DNA of 63,359 bases, filler included, from Squatina squatina (taxonomy: Eukaryota), in the NCBI GenBank assembly GCA_031763465.1. It is 4 parts of 4 records of this genome, joined end to end, with 100 filler letters (N's around TTAATTAATTAA, not from the genome) between each part and the next. Parts side by side here need not be neighbours in the genome. Positions count along the whole stretch, not along the records: positions 1 to 22,072 come from JARFOE010000115.1; 3 more parts are not named here. One strand, written 5' to 3'. A program made the translations under genes and the position numbers. Under the pieces are notes generated by a model. That model made no database searches. It was not told the origin of the DNA and saw nothing but the letters and a program-made list of their open reading frames with translations. Positions 1,117 through 62,890 of this stretch are shown in pieces. Position 1 is the stretch's first letter. Every line of letters begins with the position of its first letter.

Positions 1117-1296
1117 CAACGATGGACAGTATTGTTGCAATCATTAAAAAGGCATAAACGATGCTCATTACTGCAGCAATATTGATCTGGGTATCTGATT
1201 TGAGTTTGTAACAGATCAGTATGTAGATAGCAGGAGGAATGACTCCAAGAGCCAGAGCAACAGTTCCATTCCAGTTAAACACAAAGGTAAACGCTC
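1117..1296 (-). CDS. chs: Chitin synthase exon (C-terminal TM helices)
   Basis: aacttttacag|GAGCGTTT...ATCGTTG|gtgagt, 180 bp, phase 1-1. Encodes GAFTFVFNWNGTVALALGVIPPAIYILICYKLKSDTQINIAAVMSIVYAFLMIATILSIV and is in frame with the previous exon. Confidence 0.9.
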
Positions 1297-2080: not shown

Positions 2081-3966
2081 GGTTGATAGTAGACATAAGT
2101 GGTGAAGGTGACTCTTTTCATCTGAAAGTGTTTGGCAATTTTTTATTGTTGGTGGAGAGAAAAGATCCAATTATCATTTTTGTTGCAACAGTCTCATGCA
2201 TGAATGATGCAATAATGTGCTTCAACAAAAATTATACCATTGTTAATTCTGGTTCAGCACGAGGGAGGAGGTACATCTTAAGCGAACTTCCCTAATGAAG
2301 AAAACATCTAAAGACATCTAGGCATGAGGAACAAGGAATTTGATAGACTGACTCTGTCATTATTTTAGTTTGAATACAGATAACTATAAGGTACAAGATA
2401 TTGGCAGAGAAAAATGGTCAATAAATATAATCTATCAATGAACTAGTTCAGAAGGGAATTGACAAAATGATGACAGATCGATCCATCTAAAAGTCTTGTG
2501 TCTAGTGCACATCCATCACAAACCAGAGGTCATAAACTGAATATCACACTTCAAAGATGCAAAACACATTTTATAAATGGAGAAGGAAAGCCTGGAATTA
2601 TCTTGGAACTTACTGACTTATAATCAACCTCAGGTAAAATCAGTTACAATTACAAGAAGGTACAATTATTCCACAGGGAATACTTGAGCTGCGGCCTTAA
2701 AGAGACACATCAGGTTAGCTGCTAATCATTACAACTCTGCTCCAGACCATCTGTGAGCAACGCCGCAGGATGTCTGTTGGTGTTTCTAAATCAGTAGAGT
2801 ATAAATCAGAGGATATCATGCTGTAACTACAATATACAGTATTCTGGTCAGACTGCACCTTGTCCAGATTTGGTCAACAAGATAAAAGAGGAGTAGTGCA
2901 GAGAACCTGAAGCTGATCCCTAAGGGGAATTTTAACCGAGCACACTGGGCAGGAAATGGGTGGGTTCGGCTCAAACACCCATCTTTCACCCTGCCTGATT
3001 TTACTCTCCATCAGCATGCCCTCTGATCTTTAGGGCTGTCTTTCCAGTCGGGAATGTTCTGAGGTAAGGGTTGAGGTAAATTTTTAGTGTAATACAGTTT
3101 GATCTCTGAAATATGCCCACATTAGAAAGATTTACACCATCAATGGACTCGAACCTTAATATTCCCAGGATTCCTTCTCTCCTTGATGAGCACATATGCG
3201 AGATAGAATGAAAATAAGTTAGAAACTTACTTCAAACAAATTAGTTAGTATTTTACAATAAAATAGTGCCAATGTGGCCAGTACATGATTGATATAATGT
3301 ATCATATATTGTATCTCCATGATATTCAACATTCTTTGAAATATCACTCATTATATAACATATTGATTTTTGGTGTTGAAACACATTGTTTTATTACCCT
3401 TGAAGCAGCACCATTTTCATAAAAAGGTGCGTGTCAAAACCTCTGCTGTTCAGGAGGGGCCAGCAACCAGAGGAACCTTGAGGTATTTTCATTACATCGA
3501 TGTGACTTGTACTGGATATGCTTAGATGTGATATGTGTCATTTTGTTGTGTGTTTGTAAGCAAATGAAACAAAGTTTGCCACATACTATTTTTTTTAAAG
3601 AAAACTGTGACCTTTTCTTTGATTCTGAATGCTGGACAGTTTGATGTGTGCATCCCACTGTGAGGCTGGCATCTAAGATTCTTTATAATTATGTTGGCAG
3701 ATCCTGACGTGGCACATTAATGGATGGCTGTGTGCCAGCACACCCTTCATATTGATGCAGAAACCTGACTCTCACTAATAGTGACAAAAAAAAGCCTGTG
3801 TGTCCCTTCATTTGTGTGCAGCCAAATACAATCACTTCTGCATTTGTGGCACTGATATTATTTTATGATAAAGCTCTCGAAATGAAATAGTATTTATTGT
3901 CACAGTATATCGTCCCAAGTTATAGGTAAGAAAATATCACATCATGGTACGGAAAAGCACAGTCAC

Positions 3967-4251
3967 CTGATATCATCAAAACCACAGTGGCAGGACCCAG
4001 AATGGATGCTGCTGTTCCAATAATTTGGTACAAAATGTAGAGTTTTGAGATTGAAGGGTTTTTCCTGGAAGTTTGCGGTCCACTGTCTAGAAGGTCAATT
4101 GTATTTGCCAAAGTTGATGGCACCCCGCGACGTCGTTGATTGTAGAATTCCTTGAAATCCTCTGGTGCGTTTGTGTAGGCATCTGAAGCTGCATTGTATT
4201 CTACGCGCCAGCCCTGCTGTAGTAATAATGTACACATCCAACGGTCTTCTC
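3967..4251 (-). CDS. chs: Chitin synthase exon with GEDRW and a variant QRRR(G) motif
   Basis: ttccaacag|GAGAAGACCGTTGG...ATATCAG|gtgact, 285 bp, phase 1-1. Encodes GEDRWMCTLLLQQGWRVEYNAASDAYTNAPEDFKEFYNQRRRGVPSTLANTIDLL...ILGPATVVLMIS. Confidence 0.95.
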
Positions 4252-4610
4252 CTGTTGGAATTGATCGGTGAAATTTACTGTTAAAGGTGCTTACTCGCCC
4301 ATTGTACTAAGACCAATCAATTCAGTCAAAAATGTGAGATTCTCTTGGTACAAAGAACACCCCTGCCTTCAGTGATATATGTATCCAGGGTGACTCATGG
4401 TACTTGTACACACTAACATATGGTTATCGTTGGTCTCTTTTGACTGATTGTTCCTGACTGTAGCCTATGATTACTATGTAGCACTAAATGGTGGCTATGG
4501 AAACTTGTAGCCTCTCAGTTTACATTAGCTTTTCTTATTGAAGGAAGTTTACTGATTATTCTTTCCAAATAATGGTTTCCCTGTCACACTGAGACATTTC
4601 TTTTACACAT

Positions 4611-4828: not shown

Positions 4829-5086
4829 NNNNNNNNNNNNNNNNNNNNNNNNNNNNNNNNNNNNNNNNNNNNNNNNNNNNNNNNNNNNNNNNNNNNNNNN
4901 NNNNNNNNNNNNNNNNNNNNNNNNNNNNTCAAATAAAATGCCTCCACCTCCACTACCATAAGGCAAGCTTATTGCCCCATTTGGAGAGGCTGAACCGACA
5001 GAATCCCTCAATAACTTGGTACAATCTCTGTCCATTTTTAACTGAGGAAACAATGAATGGTTTCACTTTCAATAATGCAAGCACTT

Positions 5087-6813: not shown

Positions 6814-6915
6814 CTTTAAGGCATTTGCAGTATATGTGTCATCTTCAAATTTGCCTGATAAGGTATTGTACTTCCTGTTTAACTTCCATCCCAGCAGATA
6901 ATACATGTACATGAT
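6814..6915 (-). CDS. chs: Chitin synthase exon
   Basis: ctctcttttcag|ATCATG...TTAAAG|gtaagg, 102 bp, phase 0-0. IMYMYYLLGWKLNRKY... continues directly from KRWSQ, as in other CHS proteins. Confidence 0.92.
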
Positions 6916-10487: not shown

Positions 10488-11249
10488 NNNNNNNNNNNNN
10501 NNNNNNNNNNNNNNNNNNNNNNNNNNNNNNNNNNNNNNNNNNNNNNNNNNNNNNNNNNNNNNNNNNNNNNNNNNNNNNNNNNNNNNNGATGGGAATAACT
10601 TTCCATAGAAAAAATTAGCTGGGTCACTTGATTAATATTCTAATTTTATTTTGTTCCCCCACCATAAGTGATAGGCAATAAATTGAGGTGGGCTACCACC
10701 TCGCAGACAGTCTCCCCTCATTACCACTGTTAAGGAAGCTGCCAGATGTGCAAAAACCGCTCAAGTGCCTGGATGTTCTCTCCTTTTTTTCAGGGTGTAT
10801 TCCCCAACAGCACAGCCAAGATTGAGGGGAAAATATCATGGACAATGAACCCACATCCTATCATTAAATGGCACTGTAACACCAACACACTCCATATCAT
10901 TTGAACAAGCAGAAAAAAAAAATCATAGGCTGGGAATTTAAGCTTGCAAACAGAGTTGCCACTGCACTTCTGGTGAAGTTATGAAAGTGGAGCAGGGCAG
11001 CTACAAGGAAATTGGCAGAAAGCCTCGCAATGTGGTTAGATGAGGTGCAAACTATCATCACATTAGGTGAAAACATTTATAACATTTGATACATTCACAA
11101 CATCAGCATAAGATTTAATTGTTATTATTGCTTTGTTATACAGAATGCACAACATTCCAACAGCAATTAAATCTGTGTGGTTAAAACCCTGAAGGGAAAC
11201 TTCCATATTGGTCTTGATACACGTGAGGAGCTGGTTCCTCTGGATTTAC

Positions 11250-11339
11250 CTGAATATTGAGGTAAGGATCTTTGACATTTCATCCACTGTTTCATGCCAC
11301 ATTGTTGCACACAAATATATCATGACGTGGTCCGATTTC
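11250..11339 (-). CDS. chs: Chitin synthase exon (start of GT2 catalytic domain)
   Basis: tttatgaatag|G...TTCAG|gtaaat, 90 bp, phase 2-2. Encodes (R)KSDHVMIYLCATMWHETVDEMSKILTSIF(R), containing the CHS CATMWHE motif. Not in the ORF track. Confidence 0.93.
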
Positions 11340-13525: not shown

Positions 13526-14562
13526 CTTTTAATTTTCTCAACTTTCTTTTTCTGGACCCGTGTGTTGAGCAGCATTGACTGTTCCATGAAGGCTGCTTCG
13601 TATAGCCGTCGAACAAAGAGCTGGGATGTCCTTTCAATTCTTTGAATATGTTGGCCCCACACGTAGAATGTTGAGAAAAGCAGCCCTAGCCAAAAGCATA
13701 TAGCCAAAGAGCCAAGCAGTGCCAAGCCAACTCTGTTCGAATCTAATATTGCCTGCGCTCTGCAAAGGCTGCGAGGGATTTCTAAAAGCAGAATTTGCAT
13801 AGCGTCGCTATTGTTGACGGTTTTTAAAGTGTCGCAGAGGGCAGTCAGGTTAAAGGTGGCCTCTTCGCCATACTTGCTGGAACTGTCGTAAAGCACAATC
13901 AAAAAGACAAAAAGCACTATCGGAGTGGCTAATATGGAAGGCACGATGAAGCTGCGTCTGACAGCATGCATTTTACATGCCAGAACACCAAACCAGTGGC
14001 AAAGGACGGAAGAAACCCCCTGTATTCCAAAGAGACTCAAGATCATTTTTAAATCGAATTGCGAGACTGCTTTCACATCTTCCCAGTTATACTGCTTTAT
14101 TGGGATCCATGCTGCCACTACAGCACCAGTGACTAGAATTTTAACTGTACTGGTACAAAGATACGTGATGTTTCTAGTGTGTCGCAAGCTTTCCCTTATA
14201 TTTTCCATCCATCCAATTTTACAGTACAATGTAAAGTTTTCCCACCAATTGAAAGATACTAGTATTAAGGCAACTATTGCAAGGCCCACATATGGTTGAA
14301 TGTACTTAACCTCCTCTGAATGCTGCTGAGGGTTGTGCGCTAAAACGAAAAGCAATAGTCCCAGGAAAACAAAGCCAAAGCCTACCAGTGGGAGTAACAT
14401 AGAAGGTTTGAGGGGTTTCAGCTGAAACGCTACTTGCAGAAGTGAGGGAAAAAGGCAAACACCATTCAAAATGGACAGATTGGTTATAATGTCAAAGTGA
14501 GGCATGCAGACCAACACCAGGATTGAAGTGCCAAAAGCAACAACTGCTTCGATGGAGCAAAC
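13526..14562 (-). CDS. chs: Chitin synthase exon (large N-terminal multi-TM exon)
   Basis: Open 1037-bp exon inside ORF 13489-14613. Acceptor cacttctattgccag|GTTTGC, donor AAAAG|gtacat. Hydrophobic peptide with WWENF, LACKM and RIERTSQLFVRRLYEAAFMEQSMLLNTR, typical of metazoan CHS N-terminal region. Phase 0 to 2 matches the next exon. Confidence 0.92.
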
Positions 14563-16611
14563 CTGGCAATAGAAGTGGGGGGGGGAACAACCAGAAAGTA
14601 AAACAAAGCTCAATTATAATGTTGCAATACACTTAAACGATGTCACACTTGGAATAAAGTGTTGGACGGAAAAGGTTCTTTATTTGCGTTCAGTTAGTTT
14701 CATCCATTTTGATATGTTAGTTCCAAATTTTATTCCGTGGGGAAACTCCTCTCGCACTGGAATGGCTGGTTTGGCAAATTTTCAGGTCATGCCTTTTGAC
14801 GCTGAGGAAAGCACTAAGCTTCCAGTAATAAAGCTATTCAAACATCAGGAATAGCTTCAGTACTAAACTATGAACCCTAAGCTGTGAAAATAAATGTAAT
14901 AATCAACTCAATGTGACATGTAAGCATCTTGCCAGCATTGAACCTTTTTCTCCTATTTCCACCTTCTTCCTTGTTTTCTATGTCCTTTTTTAATTTTAAC
15001 ATTAATTTTACTCTTTGTTCTAATATACTCTATCCTAGTTTTTATTTTCTTTGTTTATATAACACTACCGATTCTCTCAAGGTGTTGCCCATGGAATGAT
15101 AGGATCAGGTACGTTTCTAAGTAATGCTGTAGATAGTGATCTGCAACTTCAGAAGTTTATGAAGCCCCACCTGGTAATAGGAATGTGCAGCTGCAGACAT
15201 GACTGTGTCACAGAATGGTGAGATCCAAGTAAGAAGTAAGAAGTGTGGGATGAACTGTCATATTTAATATATGATATTAAATATTCAACTTATATTTTTT
15301 CTTTCTGCCTTTTTGCTTCCACGGTGTGTTTTGAGAAATAACTTTGAAAAGTTAGCTAAGAACGGCTCCAAAGGGGGTTACTCCTATAACAACAGCACTG
15401 AAGATTAAAGTTGTCTCTTTCCAGGTTTTACTCATTTAGGCTCAGAAAAAGCAGATTTGCCAACAGTTACTATTTCCTCAAACCTCCTGCTTTGTGTCAG
15501 CTCTTTGTCAATACATCATCATAGGTACAAAAGTATTTGTATAATTTAAATGAAGATCTGTTTAAATTAGAAAAAAAAAGTGCAGAAGCACTTAGGGTGC
15601 CCAATTCGTGTTTTGGGCGTTTCTAGCGCTAAGCGCCGAATTTTGCGCTGGAAATGGGACTCTTTGAAAATTTGCCTTGAACCCTCCAATTAGCCACTTT
15701 AGATNNNNNNNNNNNNNNNNNNNNNNNNNNNNNNNNNNNNNNNNNNNNNNNNNNNNNNNNNNNNNNNNNNNNNNNNNNNNNNNNNNNNNNNNNNNNNNNN
15801 NNNNTGTGCTGCCATGACTTACCCTTTAATTAACTTAAATTAAATCAAATCAAAACCCATTAATTACACTACAATTAAATTATTTTAATTAGTTAATGTG
15901 TGCTCTTCTCAATATAACTTGGAGCAGTGACTGTGAATGCTGGTTAACTTGATGAGTAGTTGGGGTAAGCCCTTAAAGTACTTGGGGGCATAAAGTCGTC
16001 TGTTCAATCTTGTTCCTTACTTTTATTTGTAGCTCACAAAGTAGTTGAAGTTTAAGTGCTTTCAATTTGAAGTGTACTTTCTTAGATTAATTGTATGCAG
16101 TACAAATTTCAAGTTGTCACTATTGATGAGAATTTTCTCCAGGAGTGCTACAAAGCAGAATAAATTTAGTTTTGTGCTTCCTAGTTTCTTTACAGGTTCA
16201 ACATTTGTACTCTGTGGTACTTGTGAATAGCACTATGCAGTGCTTCTGCATAGGTTGGACAGAAACCAGCTCAAATGTTATGCATTAATTTAAAAAAATA
16301 GTGCAAGTGGAATTTACATTTTTTTGAGTTAACATTCCTGCCCCCCTCAAGGAAACTTTTATATTTTGGATCTGATCTCAATGCTGATCTTTAATATTTT
16401 GAAAAGTCAATTAACATAACTTCACAAAAATTGTAAAAAGCTGTCTGATTGTTTAATAATAAGTCAACTTATTTTTCTCTTCTGGTTTCTGATGAACCTT
16501 CCTTGCTATGCCCTCGCTCCATTTATTCTAGAGTTCTGACTCCAGATACTTTAAACAAACAAGAGCTTCAAACCTTTTGGATATCGCCAGTGCCCAAACA
16601 GACTCATTTAA

Positions 16612-16853: not shown

Positions 16854-17904
16854 CTCCCAGAGTCACAATGCGGATTCCGCCCATCAAGAGGCACAATCGA
16901 CAAGTCTAAGCAAAGTGCAGGGAGCAGCATCAACCTCTGTACATGGCCTTTTTTCACCTTCGACTCTCAACCGGGAGGGACTATGGAGAGTTCTCTTCAA
17001 ATTTGTCTGCCCGCAAAAATTCATCACCATCCTCCGACTGCTTCACGATGACATGCAAGCCGTGATCCTCACCAATGGTTCAACCACAGACCCAATACAA
17101 GTGCAAACTGGGGTCAAACAAGGCTGTGTCATCGCACGAATGCTCTTCTCCATCTTTCTCGCCACAACACTCCATTCCATTTCCACGAAGCTCTCTGCTG
17201 GAGTGGAGCTAATCTACAGGACGAGCGGGAAACTGTTCAACCTCTGTTGTCTGCAGTCCAGAACCATGACCTCTGTCATCGAGCTGTAGTATGCAGACAG
17301 CGCTTACGTGTGTGCCCACTCAGAGACTGAGCTCCAAACCATCGTCGATTCATTCACTCAGGNNNNNNNNNNATCTGCAGGATGAGTGGGAAACTGTTCA
17401 ACCTCCACCCAGTCCAGAACCAAGACCACCCCAACCTCTATCATCAAACTGCAGTATGTAGACTACACTTGCATGTATGCACATTCGGAGGCTGAGCTCC
17501 AATCCATTGTCGATTTATTCACTGAGGCGTACGAGAGAATGGGCCTCACCTTAAACATCTGCAAGACAAAGGTCCTACACAAGTCTGCCCCAGCTGCACA
17601 ACATTTCCCCCCGACTATCAAGATCCACGGCGAGCCCCTGGACAATATGGATCACTTTCCATATTTTGGGAGCCGCCTCTCAGCGAGGACATAGGTGACG
17701 AAATCCAACACCGTCTCCAGTGTGCCAGCACAGCCTTCGGCCGCTTCGGGAAAAGTGTTGGAAGATAAAGACCTCAAACCCAGCACCAAGCTCATGGTCT
17801 ACAGGGCAGCAGTAATACCTGCCCTCCTGTATGCATCGGAGACATGGACAATATACAGTAAACACCTCAAAGCACTGGTGAAGTACCACCAACACTGCCT
17901 CCGC
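16854..17904 (+). mobile_element. RTE-clade LINE RT fragments
   Basis: LPESQCGFRP.RGT, TGVKQGCVIA..LFS.F, GL.LN..KTKVL and TKL.VY.A.V.P.LLY.SETW motifs, with stops and frameshifts. Confidence 0.92.
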
Positions 17905-22072: not shown

Positions 22073-22172
22073 NNNNNNNNNNNNNNNNNNNNNNNNNNNN
22101 NNNNNNNNNNNNNNNNTTAATTAATTAANNNNNNNNNNNNNNNNNNNNNNNNNNNNNNNNNNNNNNNNNNNN
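22073..22172. other. Artificial scaffold-joining linker N44-TTAATTAATTAA-N44
   Basis: A 12-mer giving stops in all six frames, centred exactly in a 100-nt gap. Confidence 0.95.
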
Positions 22173-22892: not shown

Positions 22893-24688
22893 TCTAACTT
22901 TCTCCTACTCCTCAGTTTTGCACTCTAAATTTCCCCCAGTCCTCAGGGTTGCACTCTAAATTTCTCCCAGTCCTCAGGTATGCACAGTAAATTTCACCGA
23001 GTCCTCAGATATGGACTTTAAATTTCTCCTAGTCCTCAGTTTTGCACTCTAAATTTCTCCCAGTCCTCAGGGTTGCACTCTAAATTTCTCCCAGTCCTCA
23101 GGTATGCACTCTAAATTTCTCCCAGTCCCCAGGTATGCACTCTAAATTTCTCCCAGTCCTCAGCTATGCACACTAAATTTCTCCCAGTCCCAAGGAATGC
23201 ACTATAAATTTCTCAAAGTCCTCAGTTATGCACACTAAATTTCTCGCAGTCCTCAGGTGTGCACTCTAAATTTCTCCCAGTCCTCAGGTATGCACTCTAA
23301 ATTTCTCCCAGTCCCCAGGTATGCACTCTAACTTTCTCCCAGTCCTCAGGTTTGCACTCTAAATTTCTCCCAGTCCCCAGGTATGCACTCTAAATTTCTT
23401 CTGGTCCTCAGCTATGCACTCTAAATTTCTCCAAGTCCCCAGGTATGCAATCTAAATTTCTCCCAGTCCCCAGGTATGCACTCTAAATTTCTCGCAGTCT
23501 CCAGTTATGCACTCTAAATTTCTCACAGTCCTCAGGTTTGCACTCTAAATTTCTCGCAGTCTCCAGTTATGCACTCTAAATTTCTCCCAGTCCCCAGGTA
23601 TGCACTCTAAATTTCTCGCAGTCTCCAGTTATGCACTCTAACTTTCTCCCAGTCCTCAGGTTTGCACTCTAAATTTCTCCCAGTCCTCAGGTTTGCACTC
23701 TAACTTTCTCCCAGTCCTCAGGTTTGCACTCTAAATTTCTCCCAGTCCCCAGGTATGCACTCTAAACTTCTCCCAGTCCCCAGGTCTGCACTCTAAATTT
23801 CTCGCAGTCTCCAGTTTTGCACTCTAAATTTCTCCCAGTCCTCAGGTCTGCACTCTAAATTTCTCCTAGTCCTCAGTTATGCACTCTAAATTTCTCCCAG
23901 TCCTCAGGTATGCACTGTAAATTTCTCCCAGTCCCCAGGTATGCACTCTAAATTTCTCCCAGTCCTCAGGTATGCACACTAAATTTCTCCCAGTCCTCAG
24001 GTCTGCACTCTAAATTTCACCCAGTCCTCAGTTTTGCACACTAAATTTCTCCCAGTCCTCAGGTATGGACTCTAAATTTCACCCAGTCCTCAGTTTTGCA
24101 CTCTAAATTTCTCCCAGTCCTCAGGGTTGCACTCTAAATGTCTCCCAGTCCCCAGGTATGAACTCTAAATTTCTCCCCGTCCTCAGTTTTGCACACTAAA
24201 TTTCTCCCAGTCCCAAGGAATGCACTATAAATTTCTCACAGTACTCAGTTATGCACTCTAAATTTCTCGCAGTCCTCAGGTATGCACTCTAAATTTCTCC
24301 CAATCCTCAGGTATGCACTCTAAATTTCTCCCAGTCCCCAGGTATGCACTCTAAACTTCTCCCAGGCCTCAGGTATGCACTCTAAATTTCTCCCAGGCCC
24401 CAGGTATGCACTCCAAATTTCTCCCAGTCCTCAGGAACGCACTCTAAATTTCTCCCAGTCCTCAGGTATGCACTCTAAATTTCGAACAAGTCCTCAGGTA
24501 TGCACACTAAATTTCTCCCAGTCCTCAGATATGCAATCTAAATTTTTCCCAGTCCCCAGCTATGCACTCTAAATTTCTCCATCCTCAGGTATGCAATCTA
24601 AATTTTTGCCAGTCCTCAGGTGTGCACTCTAAATTTCTCCCGGTCCTCAGGTATGCACTCTAAATTTCTCCCAGTCCTCAGTTTTGCA
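22893..24688. repeat. 31-bp tandem satellite, about 58 copies
   Basis: Consensus TAAATTTCTCCCAGTCCTCAGGTATGCACTC, read directly. Copy number is span divided by 31. Confidence 0.97.
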
Positions 24689-27600
24689 GAATTATGTGAG
24701 TGCAGTCAAAGCACAGATTGAGGAGGGAGCACCAGTTGTGGAACTGGTGAGGGCACTCTCAGAAGGGAGTAAGGAGGGAGCAGCAGTAGTGTAATTATGT
24801 GAGTACACTCTGAGCAGGCACGACGACTGAGAACGATTAGTGGAATTAGGTGAATGCACTGAAGCAGGGAGTGAGTAGGGAGCACCAGTAGTGGAAGGAT
24901 GTGAGTGCACTCTCAGCAGGGAGTGAGGAGGGAGCACCAGTAGTGGAATTTGTCGAGTGCACTCTCAGCACGGAGTGAGGAGGGAGCACCAGGAGTGGAA
25001 TTAGTTGAGTGCACTCTAAGCAGAGATTGAGGATTAGTACCAGTAGTGGAATTAGCGGCGTGCACTCTCAGCAGGGAGTCAGGAGGGCGCACCAGTAGTG
25101 GAATTAGGTGAGTGCACTCTAAACAGGGAGTTAGGAGGTAGCACCAGTAGTGGAATGAGATGAATGCACTTCAGCAGGCAGTGAGGAGGGTGCACCAGTC
25201 GTGGAATTATGTGAATGCACTCTGAGCAGGGAGTGAGTAGCGAGCACCAATCGTGGAATTAGGTGAATGCACTCTAAGCAGGGAGTCAGAAGGGAGCACC
25301 AGTTGTCGAATTAGGTGAGTGCATTCTGAGCAGGGAGTCAGAAGGGAGCACCAGTTGTGGAATAATGAGAGTGCACTCTAAGCAGGGAGTGAGGAGGGAG
25401 CACTAGCAGTGGAATTAGCTAAGTGCACTCTAAGCAGGGAGAGAGGAGGGGGGAACCGTCATGGAATTTGGTGAGTGCCCTCTGAGCAGGAGTGAGGAGG
25501 GAGAAACATTCGTGGAATTAGGTGAGTGCATTCTCAGCAGGGAGTGAGGAGGGAGCAGCAGTAGTGGAATTATGAGAGTGCACTCCAAGCAGGGAGTGAG
25601 GAGGGAGCACCAGTCGTGAAATTAGATGAATGCACTCTGAGCAGGGATTGAAGAGGGAACACTTGCTGTGGAATTCCGTGAGTGCAGAGAAGCAGGGAGA
25701 AAGGAGGGAGCACCATTGGGGAATTTGGTGAGTGCACTACCAGCAGGGAGTACGGAGGAAGTAGCAGTCGAGGAATTAGGTGAGTCCACTCGAAGCAGGC
25801 AGTGAGGAGTGAGCACCAGCAGTGGAATTAGGTGAGTGCATTCTAAGCAGGGAGTGAGGAGGGAGCACCAGTAGTGGAATTAGGTGAATGCACTCTCCGC
25901 AGGGATTGAGGAGGGAGCATCAGTCGGGGAATTAGGTGAGTGCACTCGAAGCAAGGATTGAGGAGGGAGCACCAGTCGTGGAATTATGTGAGTGCACTCT
26001 CTGCAGTGAGTGAGGAGGGAGCACCAGTAGTGGAATTAGGTGAGTGCAATCTAAGCAGGGAGTGAGGAGCGAGAATCAGTCACGGAATTAGGTGCGTGCA
26101 CGCGATGCAGCGAGTAAGGAGGGAGCACCAGCAGTGGAATTAGGTGAGAGCATTCTAAACAGGGAGTAAGGGGTGAGAATCAGTAGCAGAATTAGGTGTG
26201 TGCACTCTAAGCATGGAATAATGAGGGAGCACCAGTATTGGAATTAGGTGTGTGCACTCTAAGCAGGGAGTAAGGAGGGAGCACCAGTAGTAGAATTAGG
26301 TGAGTGTACTCTAAGCACGGAGTAAGGAGGGAGCACCAGTAGTGGAATTAGGTGAGTGAACTCCAAGCAGGGAGGAAGGAGCGAGCATCAGTAGCGGAAA
26401 TAGGTGAATGCACTCTGAGAAGGGATTCAGAGGGGAGCACCACTAGTGGAATTAGCTGGGTGAACTCTGAGCAGAGAGTAAGGAATGAGCACCAGTACTG
26501 GAATTACGTGAGTGCACTTGAAGCAGGAAGTAAGGAGGAAACACCAGTAGTGGAATTAGATGAGAGCTCTCGAACCAGGGAGTGAGGGGGGAGCATCAGT
26601 AGGGGAATTAGGTGCGTGCACTCTAAGCATGGAGTAATGAGGGAGCACCATAAATGTGGCATTAGGTGAGTACACTGTAAGCAGTGAGTGAGGAGGGAGC
26701 AACAGAGGTGGAATTAGGTGAGTGCACTCTGAGCAGAGAGTAAGGAGGGAGAACCAGTCGTGGAATTAGGTGAGTGCACTCTCAGCAGGGAGTGAGGAGG
26801 GAGCACCAGTAGTGGAATTTGTTGAGTGCACTCTAAGCATGATGTGAGGAGGGAGCACCAGTAGTGGAATTAAGTTAGGGCACTCTAAGCAGCGAGTGAG
26901 GAGGGAGCACCAGTATTGGAATAAGGTGAATGCACTCTCAGCAGGGAGTGAGGAGGGAGCTGCAGTCGTGGCATTAGTTGAGTGCACTCTAAGCAGGGAG
27001 TGAGGAGGGAACACCAGTAGTGGAATTAGTTGAGTGCACTCTGAGCAGAGATTGATGTTTAGCAGCAGTAGTGGAATTAGCGGCGTGCACTCCATGCAGC
27101 GAGTAAGGAGGGCACACCAGTAGTGGAATTAGGTGAGCGCACTCTAAGCAGGGAGTAAGGAGGGAGCACCAGTAGTGGAATTAGGCGAATGCACTTCAGC
27201 AGGCAGCGAGGAGGGTGCACCAGTCGTGGAATTAGGTGAATGCACTCGAAGCAGGGAGTGAGGAGCGAGCACCAATCGCGGAATTGGTGAATGCACTCTA
27301 AGCAGGGAATGAGGAGCTAGCACCAGTTGTGGAATTAGGTGAGTGCACTCTAAGCAGTTAGTCAGAAGGGAGCACCAGTTGTCGAATTAGGTGAGTGCAT
27401 TCTGAGCAGGGAGTCAGAAGGGAGCACCAGTTGTGGAATTATGAGAGTGCACTCTCAGTAGGGACTGAGGTGGGAGCAACAGTCCTGGAATTAGCTGAGT
27501 GCACTCTAAGCAGGGAGTGAGGAGGGAGCACCAGTAGTGGAATTAGGTGAGTGCACTCTGAGCAGGGAGTAAGGAGAGTGCACCAGTAGTGGAATTAGGT

Positions 27601-30600
27601 GAGTGCACTCTGAGCAGGGATTAAGAGGGGAGCACCACTAGTGGAATTAGGTGAGTGCACTCCATGCAGGGCTTAAGAGGGGAGCACCACTAGTGGAATT
27701 AGGTGAGTGCACTCCCAGCAGAGATTGAGGAAGGAGCACCAGTCGTGGAATTTGCAGAGTGCTCTCTAAGCAGGGATTGATGATGGAGCGCCAATAGTGA
27801 AATTAGGTGACTGCACTCTCAGCAGGGAGTGAGGAGGGACAACTAGTCGTGGAATGAGCTGAGTGCACTTTTATCAGGAGTGAGGAGGGCGAAACAGTCG
27901 TGGATTAGGTGAGTGAACTCTAAGCAGGGAGTAAGGAGGGAGCACCAGTTGTAGAATTATGAGAGTGCACTCTAAGCAGTGAGTGAGGAGGGAGCACCAA
28001 TCGTGGAATTAGTTGAGTTCACTCTAAGCAGGGATTGAGGAGGGAGCACCAGTATTGGAATTAGGTGACTGCACTCAAAGCAGGGAGTAAGTAGATAGCA
28101 TCAGTCTTGGAATTAAGTGAGTGCAATCTGAGCAGTGAAAGTGGAGAGGGCACGAGTCGTGGAATTAGTTGAGTGCACTCTCAGCAGGGAGTGAGGACGG
28201 AGCACCAGTAGTGGAATTACGTGAGTGCACTCTGAGCAGGGAGTAAGGAGGGAGCACCAGTCGTGGAATTAGGTGAGTGCACTCGAAGCAGGGAATGCAG
28301 ATGGAGCAGCTGTAGGGGAATTACGTAGGTGCACTCTAAGCAGGAGGTGAGCAGGGAGCACCAGTTGTAGAATTATGAGTGTGCACTCTAAGCAGGGAGT
28401 CAGGAGGGAGCACCAGTCGTGAAATTAGGTGATTGCATTCTAAGAAGGGAGTGAGGAGGGGGCACCAGTAGTGGAATTAGGTGAGTGCATTCTAAGCAGG
28501 GAGTGAGGAGGGAGCAGCAGTTGTTGAATTAGGTGAGTGAACTCTGAGCAGGGATTGAGAGGAGAGCACCACTCGTGGAATTACCTGAGTGAACTCTGAG
28601 CAGAGACTAAGGAGGGAGCACCAGTAGAGGAATTAGATGAGTGCACTCCAAGCAGGGATTAAGGAGAGATAACCAGTAGTGGAATTAGGTGAGTGCACTC
28701 CAAGCAGGGATTAAGAGGGGAGCACCACTCGTGGAATGAGGTAATTGCACTCACAGCACAGTGTGAGGAGGGAGCACGAGTCATGGAATTTGGAGAATGC
28801 TCCCTAAGCAGGGATTGATGAGGGAGCGACAATAGTGGAATTAGGTGAGTGTACTCTAAGCAGGGAGTGAGGAGGGAACACGAGTCGTGGAATGAGCTGA
28901 GTGCACTTTTATCAGGAGTGAGGAGGGAGAAACAGTCGTGGAATTAGGTGAGTGAACTCAGCAGGGAGTAAGGAGGGAGCATCAGTAGTGGAAACAGGTG
29001 AGTGCTCACTAAACAGGGAGTAAGGGGGGAGTGCCAGTCCGGGAATGAGGTGAGTGCACTCGAAGCAGGGAGTGAGGAGGGATCAGCAGGAGTGGAATTT
29101 GGTGAGTGCACTCAAGACAGTGAGTGAGGAGGGAGCACCAGAAGTGGAAGTAGGTGAGTGCACTCTCAGCAATTAGTAAGGGGGGAGCACCAGTAGTGGA
29201 ATTAGATGAGTGCACTCTTAGCAGGAGTGAGGATGCAGAAACAGTCGTGGAACTAGGTGAGTGCAGTCTCAGCAGGGATTGAGGACGGAGCACTAGTAGT
29301 GGAATTAGGTGAGTGCACTCTACGCAGGGGGTGAGGAGGGACCACGAGTAGTGGAATTAGGTGAGTGCACGCGTTGCAGCGAGTAAGGGGGGAGCACCAG
29401 CTGCGGAGATAGCTGAGAGCACTCTAACCAGGGAGTGAGGGGTGAGAAGCAGTAGCGCAATTAGTTGCGTGCACTCTAAGCAATAAGAAATGAGAGAGCA
29501 GCATAAATGTGGCATTCGGTGAGTACACTGTAAGCAGTGAGTAAGGAGGGAGCAACAGAGGTGCAATTAGGTGAGGGCGCTCTCAGCAGGGAGTGAGGAG
29601 GAAGAACCAGCAGCGGAATTAGCTGAGTGCACTCGAAGCAGCGAGTGAGGAGGGAGCACCAGTAGTGGAATTAGTTGAGTGCCCTCTAACCTGGGAGTGA
29701 GGAGGGAGCACCAGTAGTGAAATTAGGTGAATGCACTCTAAGCAGGAATTGAGGAGGGAGCACCAGTAGTGTAATTAGGTGAGTGCATTCTAAGCAGTGA
29801 GTGAGGAGGGAGCACCATTAGTGGAATTTCGTGTGTGAACTCTAAGCAGGGATTGAGGAGGGGGAAACAGTAGTGGAATTAGGTGAGTGCACTCTCAGCA
29901 GTGAGTGAGAAGGGGGGACCAGTAGTGGAAATACGTGAGTGAACTCGAAGCAGGGAGTGAGGAGGGAGGACCAGTAGTCGAATTAGATGAGGGCACTTTT
30001 ATCAGGAGTGAGGAGGGAGAAACAGTATTGGAATGAGCTGAGTGCACTTCTATCAGCTGTGAGGAGGGAGAAACAGTGACGAAATTAGATTGGTGCACTT
30101 TGAGCAGGGATAGAGGAGGGAGCACTTGCTGTGGAATTGTGTGAGTGCACACAAGCAGGCAGTAAGGAGGGAGCACCAGTCGTGGAATTAGGTGAGTGCA
30201 CTTTAAGCAGGTATTGAGGAGGGAGCACCAGGAGTGGAATTAGGTGAGTGCACACTGAGCAGGGAGTGAGGAGGGAGCACCAGTACTGGGATTAGGTGAA
30301 TGCACCCCAAGCAGGGAGTGAGGAGGGAGCAACAGTCGTGGAATTAGCTGAGTGCACACTAAGCAGGGAGTGAGGAGGGAGCACCAGGAGTGGAATTAGG
30401 CGAGTGCACTCTAAGCAGGTATTGAGGAGGGAGCACCAGTACTGGGATTATGTGAGTGCACTCTAAGCAGGGAGGCAGGAGGGAGCACCAGTAGTGGAAT
30501 GAGGTGAGTGCACTCACAGCAGGGAGTAAGGAGGGAGCTCCAGTAGTGGAATTAGATGAGTGCATTCTAAGCAGGGAGGGAGGAGGGAGCACCAGTACTG

Positions 30601-33600
30601 GAATTAGGTGAGTGCACTCTAAGCAGGGAGTAAGGAGGCAGCACCAGTAGTGGAATAGGTGGGTGCACTCTATGCAGGCAGTGAGAAGGAATCAGCTGTA
30701 GTGGGATTAGGTGAGTGCACTCTGAGCATGGAGTGAGGAGGGAGCACCAGTAGTGGAATTATGAGAGTGCACTCGAAGCAGTGAGTGAGGAGGGAGCCCC
30801 AATCGTGCAATTAGATGAGTGCACTCCAAGCAGGGATTGATGAGGGAGAAGCAGTAGTGGAATTAGATGAGTGAACTCTCAGCAGGGATTAAGAGGAGAG
30901 CACCACTCGTGGAAATAGGTGAGTGCACTGTATAAGAGAGGGAGGAGGGAGCACCAGTTGTGGAATTATGAGAGTGCACTCACAGCAGGGATTGAGGAGG
31001 GAGAACCAATCTTGTAATTAGGTGAGTGACCTCTAAGCAGGGAGTGAGGAGGGAGCACCAGAAGTGGAAGTAGGTGACTGCACTCTCAGCAGTTAGTAGG
31101 TGGGGAGCACCAGTAGTGGAATTAGCTGGGTTCACTCTAAGCAGGGAGTGAGGAGGGAGCAACAGTCGTGGAATTAGCTGGGTTCACTCTAAGCAGGGAG
31201 TGAGGAGGGTTCACCAGGAGTGGAAATAGGTGAGTGCACTCTCAGCAGTTAGTAAGGGGGGAGCACCAGTAGTGGAATTAGCTGGGTTCACTCTAAGCAG
31301 GGAGTGAGGAGGGGGCAGCAGTAGTGGAATTAGGTGAGTGCACTCTAAGCAGGGAGTGAGGAGGGTTCACCAGGAGTGGAAATAGGTGAGTGCACTCTAA
31401 GCAGGGAGTGAGGAGGGATCAGCAGTAGTGGAATTTGGTGAGTGCACTCCAGGCAGTGAGTGAGGAGGGAGCAACAGAAGTGGAAGTAGGTGAGTGCACT
31501 CTCAGCAGTTAGTAAGGGGCGAGCACCAGTAGTGGAATTAGATGAGTGCAATCTAAGCAGGGGGTAAGGAGGGAGCACCAGTACTGGAATTACGTGAGTG
31601 CATTCTCAGCAGTGAGTGAGGAGGGAGCAACATTATTGGAATTACCTAAGTGAACTCTAAGCAGGGATTAAGGAGAGGGAACCAGTAGTGGAATTAGGTG
31701 AGTGCACGCTTAGCAGTGAGTGAGGAGGGTGCACCAGTTGTGGAATTACGTGAGTAAACTCGAAGCAGGGAGTGAGGAGGGAGGAACAGTAGTGGAATTA
31801 GATAAGTGCACTTTTATCAGGAGTGAGGAGGGAGAAACAGTAGTAGATGAGCTGAGGGCACATTTATCAGCTGTGAGGAGGGAGAAACAGTCACGAAATT
31901 AGATGAGTGCACTCTGAGCAGGGATAGAGGAGGGAGCACTTGCTGTGGAATTGTGTGAGTGCACTGTAAGCAGCGAGTAAGGAGGGAGCACCAGTAGTGG
32001 AATTAGGTGAGTGTACTCCAAGCAGGGAAAAAGGAGGGAGCACCAGTAGTGGAACTAGTTGAGTGACCTCTAAGCAGGGAGTGAGGAGGGAGCAGCAGTA
32101 TTGGAATTAGGTGAGTGCACTCTAAGCAGGGAGTGAGGCGGTAGCACCAGTAGTGGAATTAGGTGAGTGCACTCTGAGCAGGAATTAAGGAGGGAACACC
32201 AGTAGTGGAATTAGCTGAGAGCACTCGAACCAGGGAGTGAAGGGTGAGAATCAGTAGCGGAATTAGGTGAGTGCACTCGAAGCAGGGAGTGAGGAGGGAG
32301 AACAAGTCGTGGAATGAGGTATTTGCACTCAAAGCAGCGAGTGAGGAGGGAAAACCAGTGGTGGAATGAGGTGACTGCACTCTAAGCAGGGACTGAGGAG
32401 GGAGAACCAGTCGTGGAATGAGGTGAGTGCACTCTAAGCAGGGAGTACGGAGGGAGCAGCAGTCGTGGAATTAGGTGAGTGCAGTCTAAGCAGGGAGTGA
32501 GGAGAGAGCAGCAGTAGTGGAATTAGTTGAGTGCACTCTAACCTGGGAGTGAGGAGGGAGCACCAGTAGTGAATTATGTGAGTGCACTCTAAGCAGGGAG
32601 TGAGGAGCGAGCACCAGTAGTGGAGTTAGGTGAGTGCACTCTTAGCAGAGAGTGAGGAGGGAGCACCATTAGTGGAATTAGGTGAGTGCACTCTAAGAAG
32701 GGAGTGAGGAGGCAGCACCAATCGTGGAATTAGGTGAGTGCACTTTACCCAGGGAGTGAGGGTTGAGAATCAGTAGCGGAATTTGGTGAGTGCACTCTCA
32801 GCACGGAGTAATGAGGGAGCACCATAAATGTGGTATGAGGTGAGTGTGCTCTGAGCAATGAGTAACGAGGGAGCAGCAACAGTGGAATTAGGTGAGTGCA
32901 ATCGAAGCAGGGAGTAGGTGGGATCACCAGTCGTGGAATTAGGTGAGTGCCCTGTTAGCAGGGAGTAAGGAGGGAGCACCAGTTGTAGAATTATGAGAGT
33001 GCACTCTAAGCAGTGAGTGAGGAGGGAGCATCAATCGTGGAATTAGGTGAGTGCTCTCTTGGCAGGGATTGAGGAGGGAGCACCAGTTTTCAAATCTGGT
33101 GAATGCATTCTAAGCATGAGTGAGGAGAGAGCAGTTGTAGTGGAATTAGGTGAATGCACTGAAAGCAGGGAGTAAAGAGGGAGCACCAGTAGTGGAATTA
33201 GGTGAGTGCACTTAAAGCAGGGAGTAAGGAGGGAGCACCAGGAGTGGAATTAGGTGAGTGCACTTTAAGCAGTGTGTAAGGAGGGAACACCAGTAGTGGA
33301 ATTAGCTGAGAGCACTCTACCCACGGAGTGAGGGTTGAGAATCAGTCGCGGAATTTGGTGTGTGCCCTCGCAGCACGGAGTAATGAGGATCACCATAAAC
33401 GTGGCATTAGGTGAGTACACTCAATTCAGTGAGTGAGGAGGGAGCAAAAGTGGTGGAATTAGGTGAGAGCACTCTGCCCAGGGAGTGAGGGTTGAGAATC
33501 AGTACCGGAATTTGGTGAGTGCACTTCTAAGCAGAGAGTGAGGAGGGTGCACCAGGAGTGGAATTAGGTGACAGCACTCCAAGCAGTGACTGAGGAGGTA

Positions 33601-36600
33601 GCACCAATCGTGGAATTATTTGAGTGCACACTTGGCAGGGATTGAGGAGGGAGCACCCGGAATGGAATTAGATGAGTGCATTCTGAGCACGGAGTGAGGA
33701 GTGAGCACCACTAGTGGAATTACGTGTGTGCACTCTCAGCAGGGAGTGAGGAGGGAGCAGCAGTAGTGGAATTAGGTGAGTGCACTCGAAGCATGGAGTG
33801 GGGAGGGAGCACCAGTCGTGGAACTAGGTGAGTGCACCCTAAGCAGGGAGTAAGGAGGCAGCACCAGTAATGGAATTAGTTGAGTGCACTCTAAGCAGGG
33901 AGTGAGGAGGCAGCACCCATAGTGGAATTAGGTGAATGCAATCTAAGCAGGGATTAAGCAGTTCGCAACAGTCTTGGAAGTAAGTGAGTGCAATCTGGGC
34001 AGTGAAAGAGGAGAGACCACCAGTCACGGAATTAGGTGAGTGCACTCTCAGCAGGAATTGAGGACGGAGCACCAGTATTGGAATTAGGAGAGTTCATTCT
34101 ATGCAGGGAGGAACGAGGGAGCAGCAGTAGTGGAATTAAGTGAGTGCACTAAAAAAGCTGGGAGTAAGGAGGGATCACCAGCAGTGGAACTGGTGAGTGC
34201 ACTCTAAGCAGTGAGTAAGGAGGGAACACCAGTAGTGGAATTAGCTGAGAGCACTCGACCCAGGGAGTGAGGGTTGAGAACCAGTAGCGGAATTTGGTGA
34301 GTGCCCTCTCAGCACGGAGTAATGAGGGATCACCATAAACGTGGCATTAGCTGAATACACTCTAAGCAGTGAGTGAGGAGGGAGCAACAGTGGTGGAATT
34401 AGCTGAGTGCACTCCTGGCAGGGATTGAGGAGGGAGAACCAGAAGTGGAATTAGGTGAGTGCACTCTGAGCAGTGAGTAACGAGCGACACCAATAGTGGA
34501 ATTAGGTGAGTGCAATCGAAGCTGAGAGTAAGGACGGATCACCAGTCATGGAATTATGTGAGTGCACTGTTAGCAGCGATTAAGGAGGGAGCACCAGTAG
34601 TGGAATTCGGTGAGTGCACTCGAAGTAGAGAGTGAGGAAGTGCACCACGTGTGGAATTAAGTGAAAGCACTCCAAGCATTGAGTGTGGAGGGAGCACAAA
34701 TCGTGTAAATATTTGTGTGCACTCTTGGCAGGGATTGAGGAGTGAGCAACAGGAATAGAATTAGATGAGTGCATTCTAAGCACGGAGAGAGGAGGGAGCA
34801 TCAGGAGTGGAATTAGATGTGTGCACTCTAAGCAGGGAGTGAGGAGGGAGCAGCAGTAGTGGAATTAGGTGAATGCACTCTAAGCAGTAGAGTGGTGGTG
34901 GACCACCAGTCGTTCAACGAGGTGAGCGCACTCATGGCAGGGAATAGGAGGGAGCACCAGTAGTGGAATTAGGTGAGTGCACTCGAAGCAGGTAGTAAGG
35001 AGGGAGCATCAGTAGTTGAATTAGGTGAGTGCACTCAAAGCAGGGACTGAGGAGGGAGCAACAGTTGTGGAATTACTGGAGTGAACTCGAAGCAGGGATT
35101 AATAGGAGAGCACCACGAGTGGAATTAGGTGAGTGCACTCTCAGCTGGGACTGAGGATGGAAAACCAGTCGTGGAATTAGGTGAGTGCACTCTTAGTAGG
35201 GAGTGAGGAGGGAGCACCAGTAGTGGAATTAGGTGAGTGCACTCCACATAGGGATTGAGGAGGGAGAACCAGAAATGGAATTAGATGAGTGAACTCAAAG
35301 CAGGGAGTGGGGAGGGAGCACCACTCGTGGAATTAGGTGAGTGAACTCGAAGCAGCGAGTAAGGAGTGAGCACCAGTAGGGGTATTAGGTGAGTGCACTC
35401 TCAGCAGGGAGTAAGGATGGAGCACCAGTCGTGGAATGAGCTGAGTGCACTTTTATCAGGAGTGAGGAGGGAGAAACAGTGGTGGAATTAGGTGAGTGCA
35501 CTTTACCCAGGGAGTGAGGGTTGAGAATCAGGAGCGGAATTTGGTGAGTGCACTCTCAGCACGGAGTAATGCGGGAGCACCATAAATGTGGTATTAGGTG
35601 AGTGTGCTCTGAGCAGTGAGTAACGAGGGAGCAGCAATAGTGGAATTAGGCGAGTGCATTCTAAGCAGGGAGTAGGTGGGATCACCCGTCGTGGAATTAG
35701 GTGAGTGCCCTGTTAGCAGGGAGTAAGTAGGGAGCACCAGTTCTAGAATTATGAGAGTGCACTCTAAGCAGTGAGTGAGGAGGGAGCATGAATCGTGGAA
35801 TTAGGTGAGTGTTCTCTCGGCAGGGATTGAGGAGGGAGCACCAGTTTTGGAATCTGGTGAGTGCATTCTAAGCATGAGTGAGGGGGAAGCAGTTTTAGTG
35901 GAATTAGTTGAATGCACTCAAAGCAGGGAGTAAGGAGGGAGCACCAGTAGTGGAATTGGGTGAGTGCACTTAAAGCAGGGAGTAAGGAGGGAGCACCAGG
36001 AGTGGAATTAGGTGAGTGCACTCTAAGCAGTGAGTAAGGAGGGAACTCCAGTAGTGGAATTAGCTGAGAGCACTCTACCCACGGAGTGAGTGTTGAGAAA
36101 CAGTAGCGGAATTTGGTGTGTGCCCTCTCAGCACGGAGTAATGAGGATCACCATAAACGTCGCATTAGCTGAATACACTCTAAGCAGTGAATGAGGAGGG
36201 AGCAATATTGGTGGAATTAGGTGAGTTCACTCTGAGCAGTGAGTCACGAGGGAGCACCATAAAGGTGGCATTAGGTGAGTACACTCGAATCAGTGAGTGA
36301 GGAGGGAGCAACAGTGGTGGAATTAGGTGAGCGCACTCTACCCAGGGAGTGAGGGTTGAGAATCAGTAACGGAATTTGGTGAGTGCACTCTAAGCAGAGA
36401 GTGAGGAGGGTGCACCAGGAGTGGAATTAGGTGAGAGCACTCCAAGCAGTGACTGAGGAGGTTGCACCGATCGTGGAATTATTTGAGTACACTCTTGGCA
36501 GGGATTGAGGAGGGAGTACCAGCAATGGAATTCGATGAGTGCATTCTGAGCACAGAGTGAGGAGTGAGCACCAGTAGTGGAATTAGGTGAGTGCACTCGA

Positions 36601-37368
36601 AGCAGGGAGGGGGCAGGGAGCACCAGTCGTGGAAGTAGGTTGGTGCACTCATGGCAGGAAGTGAGGAGGGAGCAACAGTAGTGGAATTAGGTGAGTGCAC
36701 TCAAAGCAGGGAGTGAGGAGGCAGCACCCATAGTGGAATAAGGTGAGTGCAATCTAAGCAGGGAGTAAGCAGTTCGCAACAGTCTTGGAATTAAGTGAGT
36801 GCAATCTTCGCAGTGAAAGAGGAGAGAGCACCAGTCGCGGAATTCGGTGAGAGCACTCTCAGCAGGAATTGAGGATGGAGCAGCAGTAGTGGAATTAGGT
36901 GAGTGCACTCAAAGCAGGGAGTAAAGAGGGAGCAGCCGTAGTGGAACTGGTGACTGCACTCTAAGCAGTGAGTAAGGAGGGAACACCGGTAGTGGAATTA
37001 GCTGAGAGCACTCTACCCAGGGAGTGAGGGTTGAGAATCAGTAGCAGAATTTGGTGAGTGCCCTCTCAGCACGGAGTAATGAGGGATCACCATTAACGTG
37101 GCATGAGCTGAATACACTCTAAGCAGTGAGTGAGGAGGGAGCAACAGTGGTGGAATTAGGTTAGTGCACTCTGAGCAGTGAGTAACGAGGGACACCAAAT
37201 AGTGGAATTAGGTGAGTGCAATCTAAGCAGAGAGTAAGGAGGGATCACCAGTCGTGGAATTAGGTGAGTGGACTGTTAGCAGGGAGTAACAAGGGCGCAC
37301 CAGTAGTGGAATACGGTGAGTGCACTCGAAGAAGTGAGTGAGGAGGTGCACCAGGTGTGGAATGAGGT
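24689..37368. repeat. 52-bp tandem satellite, about 240 diverged copies
   Basis: Consensus GGAATTAGGTGAGTGCACTCTAAGCAGGGAGTGAGGAGGGAGCACCAGTAGT. Period of 52 checked at 24903/24955. Confidence 0.97.
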
Positions 37369-37389: not shown

Positions 37390-37489
37390 NNNNNNNNNNN
37401 NNNNNNNNNNNNNNNNNNNNNNNNNNNNNNNNNTTAATTAATTAANNNNNNNNNNNNNNNNNNNNNNNNNNNNNNNNNNNNNNNNNNNN
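37390..37489. other. Artificial scaffold-joining linker
   Basis: Identical N44-TTAATTAATTAA-N44 structure. Confidence 0.95.
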
Positions 37490-49906: not shown

Positions 49907-50006
49907 NNNNNNNNNNNNNNNNNNNNNNNNNNNNNNNNNNNNNNNNNNNNTTAATTAATTAANNNNNNNNNNNNNNNNNNNNNNNNNNNNNNNNNNNNNN
50001 NNNNNN
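49907..50006. other. Artificial scaffold-joining linker
   Basis: Identical N44-TTAATTAATTAA-N44 structure. Confidence 0.95.
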
Positions 50007-59009: not shown

Positions 59010-59250
59010 CAGGGAGGGACTGACCAGAGCCGGACCCAGTGCCCAGGGAGGGACTGACCAGAGCCGGACCCAGTGCTCAGGACGGGACTGACCAGAGCCG
59101 GACCCAGTGCTCAGGACGGGACTGACCAGAGCCGGACACAGTGCTCAGGGCGGGACTGACCAGAGCCGGACACAGTGCCGAGGACAGGACTGACCAGAGC
59201 CGGACCCAGTGCTCAGGGTGGGACTGACCATAGCCGGACAAAGTGCCCAG
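59010..59250. repeat. 34-bp GC-rich minisatellite, about 7 copies, bounded by gaps
   Basis: Unit CAGGGAGGGACTGACCAGAGCCGGACCCAGTGCY; starts at 59010 and 59044. Confidence 0.92.
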
Positions 59251-60839: not shown

Positions 60840-60969
60840 CGGCTCCAGCGGCGGCACGGCCGCCTCCAACCCCCGCAAGTTCAGCGAGAAGATCGCGCTG
60901 CACAACCAGAAGCAGGCCGAGGAGACGGCCGCCTTCGAGGAGGTGATGAAGGATCTCAGCGTGTCCCGG
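60840..60969 (+). CDS. CRTC3: CRTC first coding exon (TORC_N, CREB-binding domain); start codon in gap
   Basis: [43 protein letters not shown]|gtgagt, CpG-rich. Paralogue assigned from the position after IQGAP1 and from the 63068 exon. Confidence 0.82.
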
Positions 60970-62074: not shown

Positions 62075-62890
62075 CTAAGCCATCAAGAATACAGTTTCGA
62101 AATTTGCAGATGACACCAAATTCAGGGATATCGTTAATACAGAGGAAAAAACTGCGACAAAGTACTGGAAGCCAGTAATAAACGTGCAGAATGGGCATGT
62201 AGTTTGCAAATAAGCTTCAAAATAGATAAGTGTGAGGTGGTACATTTTGGTCGGAAGATTGAGGAAAAAGGTGTCTAAGTGGGGTAGAGGAGCAGAGGAA
62301 TATGCGGGTACAGAAACACAAGTCACTAAAAGTGATGACACAGGTTAACAAGGCCATTCCAAAAAAAACAAGCACTGAGGTTCATTTCTAGAGGGATGGA
62401 ATTGAAAAGCAGAGAAGTTATGTTAAACTTGTATAGAACCTTGGTTAGACCATGGTCTAATGGTCTAGATTCACATATGAATGGTTTTGGTCTCCATATT
62501 ATAAAAAATGATACAGAGGCACTGGAGAAGACGCAAAAAAGATTTACAAAGATGACATCTGAACTGAGAGATTATACCTATCAGAAAAGATTGAACAGGC
62601 GGGGTCTCTTCTCTCGAGAAAAGGGAAGGCTTAGGGGTGACCTGATAGAGGTCTTCAAGGTTATGAAACAGTTTGACAGGGTAGACGTAGAGAAAATTTA
62701 GGGTTCCAAATACAGAAAACACTAAAATCTAATGGACAGGTACAAGAAAATAATTTAAAAAGCTACTAGAATGTTGGTTTTTATCTCAAGGGGGGAGAGA
62801 ATACAAAAGGGTGGAAGTTATGTTACAGTTATACAAAGCTCTGGTTAGATCCCATTTCGAGTACTGCGTTCAGTTCAGGGCACCGCACCT
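62075..62890 (+). mobile_element. Two adjacent CR1 fragments in a CRTC3 intron
   Basis: SKFADDTK, LYRTLVRP and RLRGDLIEVFK, then a second LYKALVRSHFEYCVQF. Confidence 0.88.

Follow-up and report, generated by a model that had tools for sequence, protein, structure and literature searches.

Chitin synthases end their QRRRW motif in a tryptophan, and in the draft genome of Squatina squatina one chitin synthase (CHS) locus reads QRRRG instead. The question raised by this locus is whether the glycine is an error of the assembly, a mark of a copy that has lost its function, or the sign of an enzyme kept for another role. The window, that is, the whole stretch of DNA that was analysed, has a length of 63,359 nucleotides with filler included.

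The chitin synthase gene in the window

Using six chondrichthyan CHS proteins as tblastn queries, six exons of a CHS gene were identified on the minus strand of the window. The catalytic exon alone matched the Pfam family Chitin_synth_2 (PF03142) with 28.3 bits, against a curated cut-off of 27, and was 86-91% identical to 14 chondrichthyan CHS proteins, which were the best full-length single-domain matches. Features of a metazoan-type CHS are present, namely the CATMWH motif and the N-terminal membrane domain (exons A and B). The features of the locus and of its assembly are as follows.

13526..14562, minus strand: CHS exon A, N-terminal membrane region, 345 codons and 2 bases, open, with AG/GT splice sites; 88% identical to Pristiophorus CHS (tblastn)
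11250..11339, minus strand: CHS exon B, carrying CATMWHE (tblastn, splice sites)
10488..10587, no strand: N gap that truncates exon D and likely conceals ~77 residues
10365..10487, minus strand: 3' part of CHS exon D that is visible, with KKRWSQ (tblastn, splice sites)
6814..6915, minus strand: CHS exon E, 34 codons (tblastn, splice sites)
4829..4928, no strand: N gap that likely conceals the DGDTDF, QKFEY and CSPGCF exons (~112 residues)
3967..4251, minus strand: CHS catalytic exon G, from EDR to QRRRG, 285 bases, AG/GT, phase 1 to phase 1, with the Pfam match
4241..4249, minus strand: EDR motif, intact, aligning to E716-D717-R718 of yeast Chs1
4235..4237, minus strand: Met codon ATG at the Leu position of EDRxL, where organism A (a related shark, see below) has CTG
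4124..4138, minus strand: QRRRG motif, its last position aligned with W760 of yeast Chs1; organism A has TGG at 4126-4124
1117..1296, minus strand: CHS exon H, membrane helices, 60 codons, AG/GT (tblastn)
22073-22172, 37390-37489 and 49907-50006: artificial joins, which guarantee neither the order nor the origin of the pieces they connect

The earlier note, which was made from the sequence of this window, had described the gene as otherwise intact, citing CATMWHE, KKRWSQ, GEDRW and the visible splice sites and frames. All of these were recovered: 11/11 visible splice sites are canonical (AG or GT), the phases of neighbouring visible exons are compatible and in frame, and the frames are open. 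The description had overlooked a change of EDRWL to EDRWM, and because just 604 of the ~1,220 residues of a full CHS are visible, intactness can be claimed for half of the gene only. The parts that are absent from the window are ~115 N-terminal residues, ~77 residues after exon B, ~112 catalytic residues and ~290 C-terminal residues, and sensitive tblastn searches of the window for these four parts gave chance matches only. The exons for the DxD (DGDTDF), QKFEY, CSPGCF and SWGT motifs likely lie inside N gaps or outside the window. The contigs of organism A stop near the same position as the N gap at 4829..4928.

The assembly is a gappy draft of 36 pieces, with a median of 901 bases and a piece N50 of 3.3 kb. 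In each of the three artificial joins, a 12-base linker with stops in all six frames is flanked on either side by 44 N; a literature search on the linker at the level of titles returned nothing relevant, and the pieces so joined need not derive from one gene copy. No second CHS copy was found within the window by tblastn. Elsewhere in the window, a CRTC/TORC gene has its first coding exon at 60841-60969 on the plus strand (Pfam TORC_N, E=5e-20), pointing away from the CHS gene and adjoined by a 34-bp tandem repeat at 59010-59250. At 22893-37368, a satellite array of 31 bp x 58 adjoins one of 52 bp x 244, and the strand skew there is strong. Decayed fragments of LINE-type reverse transcriptases were seen at 1524-2117, 16855-17904 and 62339-62698; part of the second (16855-17286) matches RVT_1 weakly, and the first and third are presumably CR1-like.

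Conservation and role of the motif tryptophan

Read on the minus strand from position 4138 downwards, the codons are CAA CGA CGT CGC GGG GTG CCA TCA, giving QRRRG, as the earlier note had it, with GGG at 4126-4124 where organism A carries TGG; the plus-strand base at 4126 is C in the assembly. The QRRRW of an active processive chitin synthase is thereby replaced by QRRRG in the sequence as assembled. As regards a different genetic code or RNA editing, the remaining Trp codons are normal, and G-to-U editing is not known.

Tryptophan was found at the motif position in 120/120 vertebrate homologues, in 150/150 representatives from a 50% library and in 383 of the 386 proteins fetched, the other three being unaligned there; glycine was not found in any homologue aligned at this position among the 386. 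The comparison with orthologues from related species that the earlier note had proposed gave tryptophan throughout, with QRRRW in all 25 chondrichthyan proteins that cover the motif (from a set of 27 proteins representing 22 named species and two unnamed fragments, four isoform entries being excluded) and TGG in organism A. A search of sequencing runs gave five DNA runs of this related shark, sharing 0.07 of the window's words, and neither RNA runs nor runs of the window's own species. Three of the five, from two samples and two studies, were compared with 3700-4600; all three have A at 4126, and each yielded a single contig across this stretch with ~94% identity, introns included. Because organism A is ~94% identical here and carries TGG, the G is private to the assembly, the animal or the lineage, and the locus is an ordinary shark CHS locus. 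PMC10234404 likewise reports EDR and QRRRW for every teleost CHS protein in its set. A whole-word search of the literature did not find the strings QRRRG, QxxRG or QRKRG.

The nearest relative of the window protein is that of Pristiophorus japonicus (UPI00398F8D4F), which is 90% identical over the 604 visible residues and sister to the window in a tree of 25 rows (bootstrap 73), a position that loosely suggests a squalomorph shark. CATMWHE, KKRWSQ and EDR are common to the window protein and to the chs-2-like proteins of Pristiophorus and other chondrichthyans, whereas the window has QRRRG in place of QRRRW and EDRWM in place of EDRWL. LeCHS of the little skate, as described in 10.1101/687301, is the same gene as the window CHS. 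In protein searches for close relatives, no match exceeded 86% identity when the catalytic exon was treated as a short ORF, and none of near length exceeded 43% for exon A. A goldfish entry labelled 'LOW QUALITY PROTEIN' (P0160) lacks QRRRW among homologues that are intact and is likely a decayed CHS copy; in this short, low-quality model the whole motif is absent, whereas the window has a single substitution and open frames.

Two CHS proteins were found in three of the 22 chondrichthyan species, the other 19 having one in the fetched sets. The members of these pairs, which are known as proteins, are 93% identical in S. canicula (P0008/P0247), 96% in S. torazame (P0005/P0246) and 97% in Heterodontus francisci (P0015/P0255), and tryptophan is kept in both copies of each; the pairs probably stem from recent duplications, each confined to its own lineage. 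In Mustelus asterias, the CHS model (P0011, 1538 aa) is unusually long and without an exact DGDTDF, and may be fused or divergent.

The earlier note had assigned the tryptophan a role at the acceptor site, in agreement with the mutants reported for two other enzymes. With the Pristiophorus protein as query, EDR mapped to residues 716-718 and QRRRW to Q756-W760 of yeast Chs1 (PDB 7xs6), a distant match (E=4e-16) to a fungal division 1 enzyme; exon G as a direct query gave no match in the PDB. In Chs1, the acceptor GlcNAc is reported to be held between W760 and P675, and W760A is reported not to rescue a deletion strain (PMC10409773) and to have markedly lower activity in vitro (PMC9726829). The same GT2 motif is found in NodC of Sinorhizobium meliloti, a bacterial enzyme that makes short oligomers only, and here W281A is reported to abolish activity (PMC4132801). 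A review names EDRXL and QRRRW as CHS signature motifs and gives the tryptophan the same role (PMC12653383). The residue tested in Chs1 was alanine and that in the window is glycine, which is assumed here to act likewise. By analogy with these mutants, the copy with G is predicted to be null and not to be a maker of oligomers or a non-processive enzyme: because NodC, itself an oligomer-maker, also needs its tryptophan, loss of this residue should not yield a non-processive synthase, and NodC, which makes its short oligomers with the tryptophan present, offers no precedent for an oligomer synthase without it.

Selection, age and further changes in the catalytic exon

Between the window and organism A, 28 non-synonymous differences over 723 sites and 27 synonymous differences over 219 sites were counted, which gives a dN/dS of 0.29 (p=2e-5), a pairwise value that covers mostly the time before the change. 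The comparison covers 314 codons, made up of exon G and of exon A from 13526 to 14188, the ranges being the stretches covered by the first 40 of 50 and the first 40 of 60 differences in order of place. This ratio indicates that purifying selection has acted on the CHS gene over its longer past, as judged from the codons compared; since it reflects a long history as a normal enzyme, it gives no evidence of selection since the change.

No stop, frameshift or splice lesion was found in the 1,812 visible coding bases (604 codons, 11 splice sites), and the visible half of the gene thus has neither the lesions nor the dN/dS near 1 of a decayed pseudogene. Because the visible exons are without lesions, any death of the gene would be recent. 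For all 1,812 bases to have escaped lesions, the chance was put at 0.34, 0.12 and 0.013 for neutral divergences of 0.25%, 0.5% and 1%, respectively, using a rough frameshift rate of 6 per 34 substitutions from the neighbouring introns. These introns are ~5.6% different from those of organism A, and the branch lengths in the protein tree are 0.057 for the window and 0.048 for Pristiophorus; arguments on the lineage were made from leaf-only counts and branch lengths. Around exon A (13526-14590), 33 of the 60 differences from organism A have A/T in the window and G/C in organism A, with 10 transitions in the reverse direction; this skew is not seen around exon G (13 vs 14).

Exon G holds a second departure, since EDRWL reads EDRWM (ATG, 4237-4235) at a distance of 111 bases from the Trp-to-Gly change. 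Leucine was found at this position in 379/379 informative homologues, including all 25 chondrichthyan proteins that cover the region, and two homologues with an apparent Met proved to be start-codon artefacts. Long vertebrate proteins (116 of 137 used) define 77 invariant columns; at two of these columns, which are both in exon G, the window differs. When each homologue was left out in turn, at least one departure was seen in 21/116 homologues, at least two in 3/116 and at least two in 0/27 chondrichthyan entries. The ratio of divergence in exon G to that in exon A is 0.75 for the window, compared to a median of 0.37 and a maximum of 0.64 among other sharks (52 pairs). Private changes at columns invariant in chondrichthyans number 4/72 in exon G and 1/190 elsewhere (p=0.02), with 0 in the 104 such columns of exon A.

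Three other changes in exon G might be read as decay, but this reading was rejected for each. Q30E is the state seen most often (202/386) and the majority state outside sharks, E31D also occurs in organism A, and A58P falls at a variable position with P in 6/120. From these comparisons of sequence, EDRWM mildly favours real decay over a lone slip, and exon G as a whole weakly suggests that the copy is real and under slightly relaxed constraint. Support for relaxation is thin, because a departure at an invariant column is also seen in 21 of 116 normal homologues, because the excess in exon G has p=0.18 when W42G and E31D, the latter shared with organism A, are dropped, and because Q30E is the majority state outside sharks.

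Explanations for the glycine and their meaning

The explanation tentatively preferred here, with a probability of about 0.45, is that the change is real and represents a recent one-base null, either in a spare young copy of the gene or in a single allele of the animal that was sequenced. An ordinary shark CHS gene would have taken a private one-base change in its QRRRW motif; the tryptophan ring, which would hold the acceptor GlcNAc at the mouth of the channel, would be lost, and synthesis would stop, as the published mutants suggest; and the altered copy would then drift, not selected, with a working copy or allele presumably existing in the species. A null in a spare copy is plausible because two CHS proteins that are 93-97% identical occur in some sharks, and, given young duplicates in 3 of 22 species, a decaying copy in sharks would be ordinary. 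Against a spare copy are the lack of a second CHS in the window, the one contig per run in organism A and the tryptophan in both members of all three duplicate pairs, and against a real base is that the G comes from a gappy draft assembly.

A base-call or consensus error in the short-read draft, with a normal CHS in the animal, is a possibility to be taken seriously, at distinctly less than an even chance. One base would suffice, the assembly is fragmented, T-to-G miscalls are common in short-read chemistry, and the site lies next to a homopolymer (GGGG with the change); moreover, everything else that is visible looks functional and every relative has the tryptophan. This explanation has to contend with the position of the site ~700 bases within a 3.3 kb piece, with the absence of private changes at the 104 invariant columns of exon A, which suggests that errors are not rife, and with the Leu-to-Met change in the same exon, which a single slip would leave unexplained. 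The shortlist given in the earlier note, namely a null allele, a very young pseudogene or a base-call error, is judged to be right.

A loss throughout the species, in which the only working CHS has just been lost, with the change now fixed and the gene entering decay, is improbable. It would fit the 19 of 22 chondrichthyan species with one CHS, the one contig per run in organism A and the two departures at invariant sites. Yet all 22 species examined keep a copy with QRRRW, and with no lesion in 1,812 visible bases such a loss would have been caught very early. The expression of CHS in the electroreceptor canals of skates, reported in 10.1101/687301 along with chitin and CHS expression in the ampullae of Lorenzini of cartilaginous fishes, suggests a conserved use of the gene. 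A literature search at the level of titles found nothing relevant on loss of CHS in chondrichthyans.

The idea advanced in the earlier note that a catalytically dead or non-processive paralogue is kept by selection for another role is very improbable and found no support here, since the open frames, the dN/dS below 1 and the intact EDR and QRRR, which would suit it, have to be set against a low dN/dS that is expected from a long past as a normal enzyme, a locus that is not an old paralogue, a glycine shared neither by organism A nor by the 22 chondrichthyan species, all with W, the reported inactivity of NodC without this tryptophan (PMC4132801) and the absence of the three motif strings from the whole-word literature search.

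Over all these readings, the variant most probably represents damage or noise and not a new kind of enzyme. Were it an error or a private null, little would follow from it, as annotations of shark CHS exist for at least 22 species. Fixation in a single-copy gene, in contrast, would matter: a loss throughout the species, if true, would be a natural CHS knockout at its first step, with an electroreceptor gel without chitin in the first cartilaginous fish to lack working chitin synthesis, and would provide a direct test of the role of chitin in electroreception.
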